From the IMG/VR virus record IMGVR_UViG_2925891887_000008: DNA of 38,557 bases. One strand, written 5' to 3'. The position numbers were made by a program, and so were the translations under genes. Origin of the DNA: a virus. Lineage: Duplodnaviria > Heunggongvirae > Uroviricota > Caudoviricetes. Below are positions 23,793-28,565 of this stretch, piece by piece (position 1 is the first letter of the stretch; every line of letters begins with the position of its first letter). Below the pieces are notes generated by a model that saw only the letters and a program-made list of their open reading frames with translations, searched no databases and was not told where the DNA came from.

Positions 23793-25559
23793 ATGAACAC
23801 CACACTGACACTCGCAGATCTCGATCCCCGTCGGCAGGCCATGCTGCTGTACTTTCAGGGATACCGCGTAGCCCGCATTGCTGAAATGCTGGGCGAGAAA
23901 GTTTCAACCGTTCACAGCTGGAAAAAACGCGACAAGTGGGGTGACTATGGGCCGCTGGATCAGATGCAGCTCACCACCGCCGCACGCTACTGCCAGCTCA
24001 TTATGAAGGAGCACAAAGAAGGGAAAGATTTCAAAGAGATTGACCTGCTGGCGCGCCAGTCGGAACGCCACGCGCGGATCGGCAAGTTTAACAATGGCGG
24101 CAACGAAGCCGACTTAAACCCTAACGTCGCCAACCGCAACAAAGGCCCACGCCGTCAGCCGGAAAAGAACGTTTTCACCGATGAACAGATTGAGAAGCTG
24201 GAAGAAATCTTCCATTCCTCCATGTTCAACTACCAGCGCCACTGGTGGGAAGCTGGAAAAACCAACCGCATCCGCAACCTGCTGAAGTCACGCCAGATCG
24301 GCGCGACCTTTTACTTTGCCCGTGAAGCCCTGATTGACGCCCTGCTTACCGGACGTAACCAGATTTTCCTTTCCGCCAGTAAGGCACAGGCTCACGTCTT
24401 TAAGCAGTACATCATCGACTTCGCTAAAGAAGTGGAGGTGGAGCTGAAAGGCGATCCGATGGTGCTTCCTAACGGGGCCACGCTTTACTTCCTCGGCACC
24501 AATGCCCGCACGGCCCAGAGTTATCACGGCAACCTGTATCTGGATGAATATTTCTGGATACCGAAATTCCAGGAGCTGCGCAAAGTGGCTTCCGGTATGG
24601 CTATTCACAAAAAATGGCGACAAACCTATTTTTCCACGCCATCCAGCCTGACACACAGTGCTTATCCGTTCTGGTCCGGTGCGCTGTTCAACCGTGGGCG
24701 CAACAAAGCCGATAAGGTGGACATCGACCTGTCCCACAGCAATCTGGCCCCCGGCCTGCTGTGCGCAGACGGGCAATACCGCCAGATAGTCACCGTAGAA
24801 GATGCGGTGCGCGGCGGCTGTAACCTGTTCGACCTTGACCAGTTGCGCATGGAATACAGCCCGGACGAATACCAGAACCTGCTGATGTGTGAGTTCGTGG
24901 ACGATCTCGCGTCCGTGTTCCCGCTCAGCGAGCTGCAGGCGTGCATGGTGGACAGTTGGGAAGTCTGGACCGACTTTCATGCACTGGCCCTGCGCCCGTT
25001 TGGCTGGCGCGAAGTGTGGATCGGTTATGACCCGGCAAAAGGTACGCAGAACGGCGACAGCGCCGGATGCGTGGTGGTGGCACCGCCAGCCGTGCCGGGC
25101 GGTAAGTTCCGCATTCTTGAGCGTCACCAGTGGCGCGGAATGGACTTCCGCGCCCAGGCTGACGCCATCAAAAAACTGACCGAACAGTATAACGTGACCT
25201 ATATCGGCATCGACTCGACCGGCGTCGGTCACGGGGTTTACGAGAACGTGAAAGCGTTTTTTCCTGCCGTCAGGGAGTTTGTCTACAACCCCAACGTTAA
25301 AAACGCCCTGGTACTCAAGGCCTACGACATTATCAGCCACCGCCGTCTGGAGTTTGACGCCGGGCACACCGACATTGCGCAGTCATTTATGGCAATCCGT
25401 CGCGCCACCACCGCCAGCGGCAACCGCCCGACCTATGAAGCCAGCCGCAGCGAAGAAGCCAGCCACGCCGATCTGGCCTGGGCAACGATGCACGCATTGT
25501 TTAACGAACCGCTGCAGGGCGAATCCGCCAATACCAGCAATATTGTGGAGATTTTTTGA
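23793..25559 (+). CDS. P: Terminase large (ATPase) subunit P
   Basis: 588 aa (P2 gpP is about 590 aa), divergent from O, with a TGATG overlap with Q. Confidence 0.9.
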   Translation: MNTTLTLADLDPRRQAMLLYFQGYRVARIAEMLGEKVSTVHSWKKRDKWGDYGPLDQMQLTTAARYCQLIMKEHKEGKDFKEIDLLARQSERHARIGKFNNGGNEADLNPNVANRNKGPRRQPEKNVFTDEQIEKLEEIFHSSMFNYQRHWWEAGKTNRIRNLLKSRQIGATFYFAREALIDALLTGRNQIFLSASKAQAHVFKQYIIDFAKEVEVELKGDPMVLPNGATLYFLGTNARTAQSYHGNLYLDEYFWIPKFQELRKVASGMAIHKKWRQTYFSTPSSLTHSAYPFWSGALFNRGRNKADKVDIDLSHSNLAPGLLCADGQYRQIVTVEDAVRGGCNLFDLDQLRMEYSPDEYQNLLMCEFVDDLASVFPLSELQACMVDSWEVWTDFHALALRPFGWREVWIGYDPAKGTQNGDSAGCVVVAPPAVPGGKFRILERHQWRGMDFRAQADAIKKLTEQYNVTYIGIDSTGVGHGVYENVKAFFPAVREFVYNPNVKNALVLKAYDIISHRRLEFDAGHTDIAQSFMAIRRATTASGNRPTYEASRSEEASHADLAWATMHALFNEPLQGESANTSNIVEIF

Positions 25560-26626
25560 TGGGAAAGAGTAAGAAGAACCGCGCTGCGGCGACGAAACAG
25601 ATCCAGCTTAAAAGCCAGACTACAGCCGAAGCATTCAGCTTCGGCGATCCCGTTCCTGTTCTGGACCGCCGAGAACTGCTGGACTATGTGGAATGCGTAC
25701 AGATGGACCGTTGGTATGAGCCGCCCGTCAGCTTTGACGGACTGGCGCGCACCTTCCGCGCTGCCGTGCATCACAGTTCCCCGATTGCAGTAAAGTGCAA
25801 CATTCTGACCAGTACCTATATCTCTCATCCACTGCTCAGCCAACAGGCTTTTTCGCGTTTTGTGCAGGACTATCTGGTATTTGGTAACGCCTACCTGGAG
25901 AAACGCACGAATCGATTCGGTGAAGTTATCGCCCTTGAGCCTGCGCTGGCAAAATACACCCGACGCGGGTTAGACCTGGATACCTACTGGTTTGTGCAAT
26001 ACGGTATGGCCACGCAGCCGTATCAGTTCACGAAAGGCAGCATTTTTCATCTGATGGAACCGGACATCAACCAGGAGATCTACGGCCTGCCCGGTTATCT
26101 TTCAGCCATTCCGTCCGCCCTGCTCAATGAGTCCGCCACGCTGTTCCGTCGAAAGTATTACATTAACGGCAGTCATGCTGGCTTCATCATGTACATGACC
26201 GACGCTGCGCAGAACCAGGAGGATGTGAACAACCTCCGCAACGCGATGAAAAGCGCCAAAGGTCCAGGCAACTTCCGCAATCTGTTTATGTACTCGCCTA
26301 ACGGCAAAAAGGACGGACTTCAGATTATCCCGTTGTCAGAAGTCGCAGCGAAGGATGAGTTTCTGAATATCAAGAACGTGAGCCGCGATGACATGATGGC
26401 TGCGCATCGTGTGCCGCCACAAATGATGGGGATAATTCCCCAGAACATCGGCGGCTTTGGGGATGTAAGCAAAGCAAGTAAGGTATTTGTTCGTAACGAA
26501 CTGACGCCTTTACAAAGGCGAATACAAGAACTTAATGAGTGGCTATGTGACGAGGTTATCAAGTTTGACCCCTACAAACTTGATATTGAAGATAACAATC
26601 ACTCTGCTATCATACCTATCATCTAA
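25559..26626 (+). CDS. Q: Portal protein Q
   Basis: ATG 25559 gives 355 aa (the track start at 25556 is a TTG). It is syntenic after P and transcribed toward cos, as in P2. Confidence 0.9.
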   Translation: MGKSKKNRAAATKQIQLKSQTTAEAFSFGDPVPVLDRRELLDYVECVQMDRWYEPPVSFDGLARTFRAAVHHSSPIAVKCNILTSTYISHPLLSQQAFSRFVQDYLVFGNAYLEKRTNRFGEVIALEPALAKYTRRGLDLDTYWFVQYGMATQPYQFTKGSIFHLMEPDINQEIYGLPGYLSAIPSALLNESATLFRRKYYINGSHAGFIMYMTDAAQNQEDVNNLRNAMKSAKGPGNFRNLFMYSPNGKKDGLQIIPLSEVAAKDEFLNIKNVSRDDMMAAHRVPPQMMGIIPQNIGGFGDVSKASKVFVRNELTPLQRRIQELNEWLCDEVIKFDPYKLDIEDNNHSAIIPII

Positions 26627-26631
26627 ATTTC

Positions 26632-26654
26632 AACCGCCATCAGGCGGTTTTTTG
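26632..26654 (+). terminator. Rho-independent terminator after Q
   Basis: Stem AACCGCC, loop atca, stem GGCGGTT, followed by TTTTTG. Confidence 0.7.
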
Positions 26655-26710: not shown

Positions 26711-27337
26711 ATGGATATCGAAAAGCTAAAAGAATTTTACGAAAAACTTTACTTTCAGGAAACGGAAAATAAAGACAAGATTTACAACAGAATTCAAATG
26801 ATATTTGGATTAATAGTAATCGACGCAACTATCGTAACATATCTGCTTAAAAACACATCCTTTGAAAATCATGCATTCTTTGCCTGCATTGTTATAGGAC
26901 TTTCATTATTATCAGTGTTTTTTATTTATAAAGCCTGCATGCTCCTAAAAAAAGCATTTTGGGGTAATGAATTCAAATACATTCCCAAACCTAAGGAAAT
27001 AGACGAATACTACAATGGCCTCATTAAATATGAAGCAGACTATAAAAAATATTGTGATAATAATGGGCTTACCTATAATGGTGAGCACTCATCAAGTAAA
27101 AAGTTCAATGAATACTTAGTAAAACAACTAGTAGAGTGTACTAGTTGGAATACTAAGAAAAATGAAATGAGAACAAGTCAAATATATCGAGCCACTAAAT
27201 TCTTTTTTTTCTCACTAATTCCATTAGTGATAGCGGTTGGCTTTTTTTTAGCGATGGATCTCGATTCAGCCTCGCCAAGGAAGACTAATGAGCCACATTT
27301 CATTATTATACCTGTAGATAATATCAGGAGATTATGA
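26711..27337 (+). CDS. Hypothetical membrane protein with three predicted transmembrane helices (cargo)
   Basis: 208-aa ORF with GGAG 7 nt before the ATG. It is AT-rich, with hydrophobic helices at about aa 28-46, 55-73 and 164-183 and a Lys/Tyr/Asn-rich soluble middle. I recognise no family. Confidence 0.7.
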   Translation: MDIEKLKEFYEKLYFQETENKDKIYNRIQMIFGLIVIDATIVTYLLKNTSFENHAFFACIVIGLSLLSVFFIYKACMLLKKAFWGNEFKYIPKPKEIDEYYNGLIKYEADYKKYCDNNGLTYNGEHSSSKKFNEYLVKQLVECTSWNTKKNEMRTSQIYRATKFFFFSLIPLVIAVGFFLAMDLDSASPRKTNEPHFIIIPVDNIRRL

Positions 27338-27462
27338 TGGGAAAAGCCCCTACACCTAACAAGCCACCAGCGAAGACTCCAACTCCGCCGACACCGCCGA
27401 CACCGCCTAAATCTAGGCTAGTGAGAGACGATGATTCGAAAGCCAAAAGCAAAAGAGGTTAA
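27334..27462 (+). CDS. Polyproline micro-ORF 1 (42 aa; 41 aa if ATG 27337 is used)
   Basis: MMGKAPTPNKPPAKTPTPPTPPTPPKSRLVRDDDSKAKSKRG. AGGAG at 27326-27330 precedes it, and the ATGATG start overlaps the stop of the 208-aa gene. Hand-translated, because it falls below the ORF-track cutoff. Confidence 0.55.
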   Translation: MMGKAPTPNKPPAKTPTPPTPPTPPKSRLVRDDDSKAKSKRG

Positions 27463-27468
27463 AGTATC

Positions 27469-27642
27469 ATGATAAAGCCCAGCAACGAAGGAACTGGAAA
27501 ACCAAATTCTACAAGTAAATCACCTGTACCGCCTCAGCCGCCTCAGCCGCCTCAGCCGCCTCAGCCGCCTCAAACAAGGTTAGTACGAGAAAGCTTTGGA
27601 GAATACATTTCAAAGAGAGATACGAAAAATGACAAAAAATAA
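27469..27642 (+). CDS. Polyproline micro-ORF 2 (57 aa)
   Basis: MIKPSNEGTGKPNSTSKSPVPPQPPQPPQPPQPPQTRLVRESFGEYISKRDTKNDKK. It starts 6 nt after the stop of micro-ORF 1 and shares the PP-x-[ST]-R-L-V-R-[DE] motif with it. Confidence 0.55.
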   Translation: MIKPSNEGTGKPNSTSKSPVPPQPPQPPQPPQPPQTRLVRESFGEYISKRDTKNDKK

Positions 27643-27736
27643 CGAGCAAAAACCACCACCACCACCACCACCACCACCACTACCACCATCGTCCCGCATG
27701 CTATTTGATCACGCGGCCCCCCCTAAGAAGAAATAA
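27629..27736 (+). CDS. Polyproline micro-ORF 3 (35 aa)
   Basis: MTKNNEQKPPPPPPPPPLPPSSRMLFDHAAPPKKK. It overlaps the end of micro-ORF 2 by 14 nt in another frame and has a purine-rich stretch upstream. A terminator follows directly. Confidence 0.5.
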   Translation: MTKNNEQKPPPPPPPPPLPPSSRMLFDHAAPPKKK

Positions 27737-27740
27737 CCTT

Positions 27741-27770
27741 AAGCCTGCGACTTAGCAGGCTTTCTTCATT
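27741..27770 (+). terminator. Rho-independent terminator closing the cargo operon
   Basis: Stem AAGCCTGC, loop gactta, stem GCAGGCTT, followed by TCTTCATT. It begins 5 nt after the stop of micro-ORF 3. Confidence 0.6.
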
Positions 27771-28139: not shown

Positions 28140-28565
28140 ATGAAAAGCTTTTACGTATTAATTTTAATTCTGGTTGCAAGCTTTGTTAGCGTCCCAGTTC
28201 AGGCGGTAACAGCTAAAAACTATGAGAAAGGAACTAAAGCTCAACAGAAATCAATATCTTACCTTTCATGTGCATTCTATGGCAGTAGCACACAATTAGA
28301 TCCTAGCTACACGGAGCAAGTACCTACAGCCGATATCAAGATATTACAGAAAGCAGCTTACCACGCTTACAACGATGCGCTCTCATACTTTGGCTATGAG
28401 GAACCAGATCACGAACAACGCATAATTGATTATGCTGAATTTGTGGCGTCGCAAGAAGCTGTGTTATGGGATAAGCCGGGAATGAATGGAAAGCAGGTAA
28501 CACTAATTGCTCGTTCTCTCTACAATGAGAGTAACTGTAACTTGTTACTGGACTCAATTAAGTAG
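28140..28565 (+). CDS. Hypothetical exported protein (cargo)
   Basis: 141 aa with GAGG upstream. It has a Sec-type signal peptide, MKSFYVLILILVASFVSVPVQA/VT, and is AT-rich. I recognise no family. Confidence 0.65.
   Translation: MKSFYVLILILVASFVSVPVQAVTAKNYEKGTKAQQKSISYLSCAFYGSSTQLDPSYTEQVPTADIKILQKAAYHAYNDALSYFGYEEPDHEQRIIDYAEFVASQEAVLWDKPGMNGKQVTLIARSLYNESNCNLLLDSIK

Follow-up and report, generated by a model that had tools for sequence, protein, structure and literature searches.

Three polyproline micro-protein genes in a P2-like prophage are probable partners of a small membrane protein weakly resembling two-transmembrane effectors

The window analyzed here, the whole 38,557-nucleotide (nt) stretch of IMG/VR virus record IMGVR_UViG_2925891887_000008 (Caudoviricetes), is a P2-like prophage whose gpQ-cos-gpA region carries a cassette in which the gene for a 208-amino acid (aa) membrane protein is immediately followed by three tandem open reading frames (ORFs) of fewer than 60 codons, each with a proline-rich core. 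This locus raises the question of whether such short and repetitive frames are genes at all and, if they are, what polyproline micro-proteins would do beside a membrane protein. We find that all three frames are conserved as coding sequences in diverged relatives and that their peptides correspond to a C-terminal module that other members of the membrane protein family carry in fused form. The features concerned are as follows.

26711..27337, plus strand: 208-aa three-helix membrane protein, the module's founding gene, on which the peptides are predicted to dock at a conserved W84-G85-N86-x-F88-x-Y90 loop after transmembrane helix 2 (TM2)
27334..27462, plus strand: micro-protein A, 42 aa, MMGKAPTPNKPPAKTPTPPTPPTPPKSRLVRDDDSKAKSKRG; its start overlaps the stop of the membrane gene (ATGA)
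27385..27407, plus strand: 9-nt tandem repeat CCGCCGACA, 2.6 copies, PPT units, inside A (Tandem Repeats Finder, TRF)
27469..27642, plus strand: micro-protein B, 57 aa, MIKPSNEGTGKPNSTSKSPVPPQPPQPPQPPQPPQTRLVRESFGEYISKRDTKNDKK
27529..27572, plus strand: 9-nt tandem repeat CCGCCTCAG, 4.9 copies, PPQ units, inside B (TRF)
27629..27736, plus strand: micro-protein C, 35 aa from a conserved ATG, MTKNNEQKPPPPPPPPPLPPSSRMLFDHAAPPKKK; overlaps the end of B out of frame
27652..27688, plus strand: 3-nt array, TRF consensus ACC, CCA codons in frame, 12.3 copies, the Pro run of C

The four genes are tightly packed. The stop codon TGA of the membrane gene at 27335-27337 overlaps the ATG of A at 27334, A and B are separated by 6 nt (27463-27468), and B and C overlap by 14 nt (27629-27642), with suitably spaced Shine–Dalgarno-like runs, AGGAG (27326-27330), GAGG (27455-27458), and GAGAG (27615-27619), for A, B, and C, respectively. 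These spacings and ribosome-binding sequences, together with the three translations, had been proposed in a first-pass annotation made from the sequence alone, and all are reproduced from the ORF list and the sequence; the distinct repeat units that it assigned to the Pro cores hold at the DNA level as well, where the cores of A, B, and C are encoded by three different perfect tandem repeats. The third ORF as listed spans 27596-27736 and encodes 46 aa from a TTG, with an internal ATG at 27629 that yields the 35-aa peptide; this ATG and an 8- or 14-nt overlap between B and C are kept in 11 of the 12 loci compared, with an Edwardsiella tarda locus (L013) lacking an intact B. A programmed frameshift joining the membrane gene to A was considered and rejected, as the AGA-TTA-TGA context is without a slippery site; re-initiation fits better because a strong Shine–Dalgarno sequence and the ATGA overlap are both present.

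The region is found in 13 of 5426 complete Escherichia coli genomes at 97.6-99.2% identity (megablast), and RefSeq/PGAP annotates none of the three ORFs in the five of these 13 genome regions that were inspected. Five E. coli copies of ~99% identity (L001-L005) differ mainly in repeat number, in steps of 9 or 3 nt, with three or four PPT units in A, three to six PPQ units in B, and one extra CCA (Pro) codon in C of one strain. Perfect tandem DNA repeats with copy-number polymorphism and a lack of PGAP annotation would also suit chance frames lying over a slippage-prone simple-sequence repeat or a noncoding RNA, a reading that we regard as exceedingly improbable. Against it, indels in these near-identical copies are multiples of 3, save for two single-base homopolymer changes, each in one genome (A7 to A6 in L002 and C7 to C6 in L004), which would frameshift C and may be sequencing errors. 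Furthermore, one to three Pro-rich micro-ORFs lie directly downstream of the membrane-protein relative in 24 of 25 further loci, in which the membrane proteins are 29-100% identical to that of the window where measured; the sole exception is the fused Vibrio pectenicida gene (L029), after which no free micro-ORF is seen. The diverged loci with immediately adjoining Pro-rich micro-ORFs derive from a metagenome, Serratia, other E. coli P2-like prophages, and IMG/VR contigs, and their membrane proteins are 75%, 58%, about 50%, and 47% identical to the window protein.

Orthologous types can be told apart by their C-terminal signatures, which read ...R-L/I-V-x-D/E-D-D-S-K-A-K/R in A, ...R-L-V-R-E-S-Y-G...K-R in B, and ...R-x-x-F-D-H-x-D...K-K-K in C. 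We carried out the comparison among homologues that the first-pass annotation had proposed, using the Nei–Gojobori method (NG86), and obtained proportions of nonsynonymous (pN) and synonymous (pS) differences of 0.00-0.37 and 0.12-0.9, respectively, with ratios of nonsynonymous to synonymous change (dN/dS) mostly 0.04-0.36 in all three frames and thus well below 1 (A, 0.09-0.27; B, 0.12-0.36 with one pair, L010-L021, at 0.80; C, 0.00-0.27). Differences at the first, second, and third codon positions number 116, 107, and 281 over 608 aligned codons, a ~2.5-fold excess of third positions over first or second. Aligned Pro-Pro pairs use different codons in 89 of 143 cases (62%), and homologues encode their Pro cores with different codons and without DNA repeats; because the Pro codons vary in this way beside the third-position excess, selection preserves the prolines rather than a DNA repeat. 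An Rfam scan of the region returns sub-threshold noise only. The frames remain open and syntenic even in loci where synonymous divergence is saturated (pS up to 0.9), which speaks against a noncoding function. Since diverged loci keep these frames under constraint, we reject the chance-ORF and noncoding readings and conclude, from comparative sequence analysis, that the three ORFs are almost certainly genuine genes under purifying selection. The earlier proposal of diverging paralogous genes is thereby upheld by synteny at 47-75% membrane-protein identity, by low dN/dS, and by the paralogue-specific ends; its count of three peptides stands for the subfamily of the window and does not extend to related loci, which carry one, two, or three.

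Two of these loci are decay variants. In Serratia marcescens (L008 3627-3980), A is missing and a 128-nt gap lies beside an intact membrane gene, and in E. tarda (L013 3001-3982), the membrane gene is frameshifted (171 + 36 aa) and B is broken, with A and C intact. In E. coli PC-NDM34 (L002 2370-2543, minus strand), RefSeq lists an antisense 57-aa ORF, WP_222701163.1, opposite B (window ~27469-27642), which is probably a mis-call arising from the stop-free reverse complement of Pro codons, and several genomes have a pseudogene call on the minus strand, labeled "hypothetical protein, internal stop," that covers the end of C together with the cos-proximal region.

The peptides have almost no standing in databases. 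The exact A sequence is present in public gene calls, where a 41-aa member of the same cluster, from a Caudoviricetes metagenome-assembled genome, is named only "hypothetical protein," and a type B profile run against 5.8 billion proteins finds only seven related clusters, each of them either unnamed or "hypothetical." No family for the peptides exists in PADLOC, Pfam, NCBIfam, or PHROGs (PHROGs gives a weak partial match for A only), DNA and tblastn searches of the INPHARED phage collection give no match, and a profile search of genome contigs with the family alignment gives no confirmed relative. Literature searches for SLATT or PycTM proteins with proline-rich or polyproline partners, or for polyproline small proteins in prophages, returned nothing relevant, and no described system pairing a two-transmembrane (2TM)-type effector with polyproline micro-proteins was found; the database and literature searches thus agree with the earlier statement that no described phage or defense component resembles these peptides. 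Likewise, no PPPPPP stretch occurs in the supplementary files of Rousset et al. (2022; PMC9122126) that list cloned proteins.

To place the peptides in the context of the membrane protein family, we searched 1.84 billion representative proteins with a seven-sequence profile (HMMER) and retrieved at least 1082 clusters at 50% identity with E ≤ 1e-3, or 322 with E ≤ 1e-10. Among the best 150 representatives of these at least 1082 clusters, 98 are 225 aa or longer and 50 have a Pro-rich window after the core, followed in most of the 50 by R/Q-hydrophobic-hydrophobic-x-E/D; the strict motif is present in 30 of the 98 long tails, compared with 0.5 expected from composition-preserving shuffles. The distant Photobacterium and V. 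pectenicida relatives, for example, are 260-270 aa long and end in ...PPPPPPPQEPDARPLVEDNY... and ...PPPPPPPPIEPTWQVATESY..., and fused forms in general carry a helical linker of 40-100 residues ahead of the Pro core. The 31 free peptides collected have the same hallmark, an invariant Arg zero to two residues past the last Pro, then two mostly hydrophobic residues, any residue, and Asp or Glu. The module opens with a short, polar N-cap and continues through a polyproline rod, which varies in length, to the Arg and a hydrophobic strand of two residues; an acidic residue and a charged end complete it. A strict SH3 class II ligand logic (PxxPxR) was rejected on inspection of the 31 free peptides, as many orthologues misfit the spacing. 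Free copies number three in the window subfamily, two in L034 and L035, and one in L036 and L037, and one additional free copy follows five of the six fused genes inspected in sequence, the exception being L029. In the Photobacterium locus (L028 2058-2885, 4029-4799), two proteins that carry no annotation in the PLSDB table, one of 275 aa and a Cys-rich one of 256 aa, sit on either side of the fused homologue.

By these sequence comparisons, the micro-proteins are detached, duplicated copies of the C-terminal module of the membrane protein. By a Rosetta-stone argument, the occurrence of fused and free forms points to a shared function and probably to contact, and the peptides are very probably partners of the membrane protein. 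Adjacent coupled genes with fused and split versions within one family also amount to an organization of the toxin–antitoxin type. The same comparisons bear on the suggestion, made in the first-pass annotation, that the peptides act inside the cell like proline-rich antimicrobial peptides. As analogues of such peptides or as bacteriocin-like toxins directed at the ribosome or DnaK, with the membrane protein as exporter or immunity protein, they would resemble oncocin, Bac7, apidaecin, and pyrrhocoricin in being short, cationic, and Pro-rich, and a basic residue followed by hydrophobics loosely recalls DnaK-binding peptides. In contrast to those peptides, they have no PRP/RPP repeats and no high Arg content, with one invariant Arg, a conserved acidic residue right behind the hydrophobic pair, and Lys-rich ends; they are leaderless, made inside the cell, and also found fused to a membrane protein, which is hard to square with a diffusible toxin. 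No leader or export signal occurs in the 31 peptides and no ABC transporter in any locus, and we consider an antimicrobial role highly improbable.

To obtain structural insights into how the module might meet the membrane protein, we used AlphaFold2 (AF2) to model P0055, a naturally fused protein of 284 aa, from an alignment of 58 fused family members. Its core is modeled with a predicted local distance difference test score (pLDDT) of about 97, the linker (218-248) is disordered (pLDDT below 50), and the Pro core (251-260, PPPPPAPEPP) has a mean pLDDT of 91. Only two multiresidue strands are assigned, 263-265 (RPL of EIRPLVEDD) and 93-95 (YET of FWGNTYETLP), and we take these to pair. Strand 93-95 falls in the conserved WGN loop (W84...F88-K89-Y90 in the window protein), so that the Pro rod and the Arg strand are predicted to lie against the loop that follows TM2. 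The earlier speculation that the peptides are polyproline II (PPII) partners of the membrane protein gains strong indirect support from this predicted docking and from the fusion of the module in about one-third of the best 150 family representatives.

The binding evidence applies equally to a role of the peptides as positive assembly factors, in which PPII rods would nucleate or staple an oligomer of the membrane protein that is inactive without them, in the manner of ColQ or PRiMA. Aromatic residues, the usual chemistry of PPII recognition, are found on the N-terminal helix (Y14 in 90 of 95 members; Tyr or Phe at 10 and 15) and in the WGN loop. A locus with several different peptides would be in keeping with a hetero-oligomeric scaffold, and coupled translation would give matched amounts. 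In the pairing of PRAD with WAT, the proline-rich attachment domain of ColQ or PRiMA organizes four acetylcholinesterase tail helices. The present system may be analogous in that a short PPII rod would be met by aromatics of α-helices and would govern the assembly state at a membrane; it differs in that the PRAD–WAT complex is eukaryotic and extracellular and shares no sequence relationship, and Pfam PRIMA1 gives only a weak low-complexity match. However, a number of peptides that varies from one to three beside similar membrane proteins is a poor fit to a fixed stoichiometry, and AF2 docks the tail on a monomer at high confidence; an assembly factor is an unlikely alternative, if still one to be taken seriously.

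The sidedness of the protein bears on a further alternative. Loop 1 averages 0.28 Lys + Arg versus 1.9-3.4 at the flanks of the central domain, and in the AF2 model of P0055, DSSP assigns single bridge residues to loop 1 (54) and to the segment immediately behind TM3 (192); we read the two as lying on the same side. On the basis of these charge counts and bridge residues, the N terminus and central domain would be cytoplasmic and the C terminus external. A three-TM topology that places a fused tail outside would suit a periplasmic module whose Pro rod serves as a rigid, TonB-like spacer, presenting the Arg-hydrophobic-acidic strand to a periplasmic or incoming-phage target in superinfection exclusion. 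The likeness to TonB extends to the order of TM helix, linker (the 40-100-residue helical segment of the fused forms), and Pro-rich rod, whose polymorphism in length would be natural in a spacer, with a strand motif that could pair by β-augmentation, and the Photobacterium tail has a weak TonB match. That match, however, has an E of 0.1 and lies far under the cut-off of 315 bits, the TonB C-terminal domain is absent, AF2 puts the tail on the post-TM2 loop, on the cytoplasmic side, and signal peptides, lipoboxes, and hydrophobic segments are absent from all 31 free peptides. A periplasmic spacer is in our view improbable.

We also considered that the act of translation, and not the peptides, is what matters, with stalling on the Pro runs making the three ORFs a sensor of translation status through which operon expression or the stability of the mRNA would be tuned. 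For enterobacteria, 7-11 Pro codons in a row is an extreme length whose translation requires elongation factor P (EF-P), and such runs occur here in ORFs that are short, tightly packed, and overlapping. Such a sensor would not account for selection on residues outside the Pro run (the Arg, the hydrophobic pair, the acidic residue, and the paralogue-specific ends) or for a module that is also a fused tail predicted to dock on the protein; moreover, the gene that would be regulated lies upstream of the ORFs, and the Pro cores of A and B are interrupted by Thr, Gln, Lys, or Glu and are weaker stallers. We judge this reading very improbable.

The membrane protein itself is listed in RefSeq as "hypothetical protein" (WP_048237166), and one UniRef record calls it a SLATT 2TM effector. 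AF2 models it as all-helical (pLDDT 79) with long helices at 3-48, 55-84, 94-117, and 128-187, and inspection of the sequence places hydrophobic stretches at about 29-47, 56-76, and 163-182; the models show an N-terminal TM hairpin and a cytoplasmic bundle plus a third hydrophobic helix (residues 163-182). In 95 aligned members, N151 is invariant, N147, R154, Y14, R27, Q29, Y44, F179, D185, and K191 are nearly so, and the W-G-N-x-F/Y loop following TM2 is well conserved. A conserved disulfide in the central domain was rejected because most relatives have Asn in place of C115. No Pfam or NCBIfam model matches the family, which in PHROGs corresponds only to the unnamed phrog_36961, and a sequence-profile search of the PDB gives no match. 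PADLOC gives weak matches, with an E of 2e-4 for the window protein against Effector 2TM and, among the 95 members, 13 member-model matches to PycTM over three models (best E 2.8e-6) and matches to RTasSLATT in three members; individual family members also give weak matches to CBASS 2TM effector models. Truncated forms of the protein occur in several E. coli records (168, 150, 148, 134, and 124 aa, and others), many of them partial contigs; two 168-aa forms recur, on 10 and 5 contigs. Truncation could mean that a costly gene has been inactivated or that translation begins at an alternative start.

On these sequence grounds, the membrane protein is best described as 2TM-effector-like, to which it is weakly similar, rather than as a member of SLATT. 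Like the pore-forming 2TM effectors of abortive-infection systems (PycTM of Pycsar, the 2TM effector of CBASS, and SLATT), it is small, helical, and membrane-bound, and its models combine a TM hairpin at the N terminus with helices on the cytoplasmic side; it is found on prophages and in defense hotspots, and its PADLOC matches, although weak, recur. Unlike SLATT and 2TM effectors, it has a predicted third TM helix and no Pfam SLATT match, and it has no linked cyclase, SLOG/SMODS enzyme, or reverse transcriptase, its constant partner being the Pro-rich module; no cyclase, SMODS/CD-NTase, SLOG, pyrimidine cyclase, or reverse transcriptase is found in the window or in the related loci with inspected genes. 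One SLATT-domain protein is, for comparison, the partner of DRT10/UG17 reverse transcriptases (bioRxiv 10.64898/2026.04.29.721553, which cites Burroughs et al. 2015).

The cassette lies between the packaging genes and the cos-proximal region of the prophage and is bounded by the following features.

23793-25559, plus strand: large terminase gene
25556-26626, plus strand: portal gene
26632..26649, plus strand: terminator-like hairpin that forms the upstream moron boundary and ends the terminase/portal transcript (7-bp stem, five GC pairs, T-run)
27741..27762, plus strand: bidirectional terminator-like hairpin that closes the four-gene unit, just before the cos-proximal region

Beyond the hairpin at 27741-27762, the order is the cos-proximal region, a 141-aa ORF, DinI-like genes, and the gpA replication gene (minus strand). 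The 208-aa gene has a GC content of 30%, compared with 51-59% in adjacent phage genes, and the drop falls just after the hairpin at 26632-26649; a consensus scan detects no promoter-like site between that hairpin and the start of the membrane gene. P2-like phages carry cargo genes in the gpQ-gpA interval, a hotspot described by Rousset et al. (2022; PMC9122126). Because of the atypical GC content, the bracketing hairpins, and the insertion between the portal gene and cos/gpA, the membrane gene and three micro-ORFs look like a self-contained, AT-rich, terminator-bracketed moron. Relatives also occupy a second P2 moron site, flanked by gpV (spike) and gpS (tail completion), with two Pro-rich micro-ORFs in L035 (2461-3322) and one in L036 and L037 (3001-3758), and relatives adjoin a type ISP restriction enzyme and a BrxC/D-like ATPase; these defense-hotspot placements come from a small sample. 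The 141-aa ORF (window 28140-28565, plus strand) has a signal-peptide-like N terminus, MKSFYVLILILVASFVSVPVQA, and a full-length match to phrog_7437 (E 4e-99). It corresponds to RefSeq WP_000834899, with at least 32 occurrences in the P2 hotspot table of Rousset et al., and since its neighbors vary across that table, we take it to be a separate cargo gene.

These observations can be joined into one explanation, in which a moron encodes a pore-former-like effector and tail-module peptides that act as its latch; we put its chances at about even. The peptides would bind the membrane protein directly, with the Pro rod and the Arg-hydrophobic strand on the aromatic juxtamembrane loop, WGN-x-F/Y-x-Y. 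The membrane protein would be a pore-former-like effector, and the peptides would replace a nucleotide signal as its regulators, a role we give them because no nucleotide cyclase or reverse transcriptase accompanies the effector. As antitoxin-like latches, the peptides might hold the effector closed, and their loss would free it to permeabilize the membrane, so that infection is aborted or excluded. Loss could come about through turnover under disturbed translation, aided by slow, EF-P-dependent synthesis of the long Pro runs, or through capture by a phage protein. An anti-phage or exclusion function, taken by itself, is a proposition that could fall either way, and the inhibitory direction of regulation specifically is tentative and rather to be doubted. 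A precedent for the logic is CapRel SJ46 (PMC9712102), which is likewise prophage-borne and in which the element is either the C-terminal extension of the effector or a separate adjoining small gene. There, the C-terminal element restrains the effector until infection, and we propose the same only by analogy; the CapRel SJ46 toxin is a soluble tRNA pyrophosphokinase with a folded antitoxin domain, whereas here a membrane protein would be paired with a 30-57-residue PPII peptide in up to three paralogous copies.

A bolder form of this proposal is a novel class of membrane toxin/peptide–antitoxin immunity module, in which rods of roughly bilayer length (10-14 residues, 31-43 Å) would latch or plug the three-helix pore-former and sense phage-induced translation failure, with the paralogues, distinguished by their conserved ends, as baits for different phage proteins. 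Here the module would be a built-in sensor of translation failure because the rods need EF-P and continuous translation; we think this form distinctly unlikely.

Several points weigh against the latch explanation as a whole. The similarity of the membrane protein to known 2TM effectors is weak, the Pfam models SLATT_1-6 match neither the window protein nor 17 relatives (E ≤ 0.1-1), and fold searches with the membrane protein models return generic helical bundles only. In Table S5A of Rousset 2022 (PMC9122126), the membrane protein is listed only as "hypothetical" and is not among the cloned systems. The predicted docking comes from one AF2 model, read from its pLDDT and DSSP output, and no single peptide appears indispensable, because the Serratia locus without A keeps an intact membrane gene. 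Finally, three TM helices should put a fused tail on the side of the membrane opposite the loop to which it is predicted to bind. Free peptides without signals would sit on the correct side for the WGN loop, and, judging from their coding sequences, fused genes may contain an internal start from which the tail is additionally made on its own, as a free peptide in the cytoplasm. A Met lies 16 or fewer residues upstream of the Pro core in 35 of 50 fused tails versus 25% expected (binomial P = 3e-11), and an in-frame ATG precedes the Pro core in all six fused genes inspected (L029, L030, L033, L038, L039, and L040), with a Shine–Dalgarno-like GGAG, AAGGA, GAGG, GGAGG, or AAGGGA 7-10 nt before this internal ATG. 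Regulated insertion of TM3 or a rod threaded through an oligomeric pore are alternative ways round the problem of sidedness.

For the biology of these prophages, the analysis means that standard annotation misses three genes per locus that are in all likelihood real, within a large family (at least 1082 clusters at 50% identity) that has no curated model and whose hallmark is a polyproline module, fused or free. The presence of this module in the best-studied prophage defense hotspot makes it a candidate for a new anti-phage or exclusion mechanism based on micro-protein control of a membrane effector, and what would be new here is a membrane effector module, carried by a prophage, whose regulatory partner is of a new type. 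The family also offers a natural system in which to ask what purpose very long bacterial polyproline runs serve and whether dependence on EF-P is put to regulatory use. If it were true that the rods act as translation-gated plugs, the mechanism would be new in kind.

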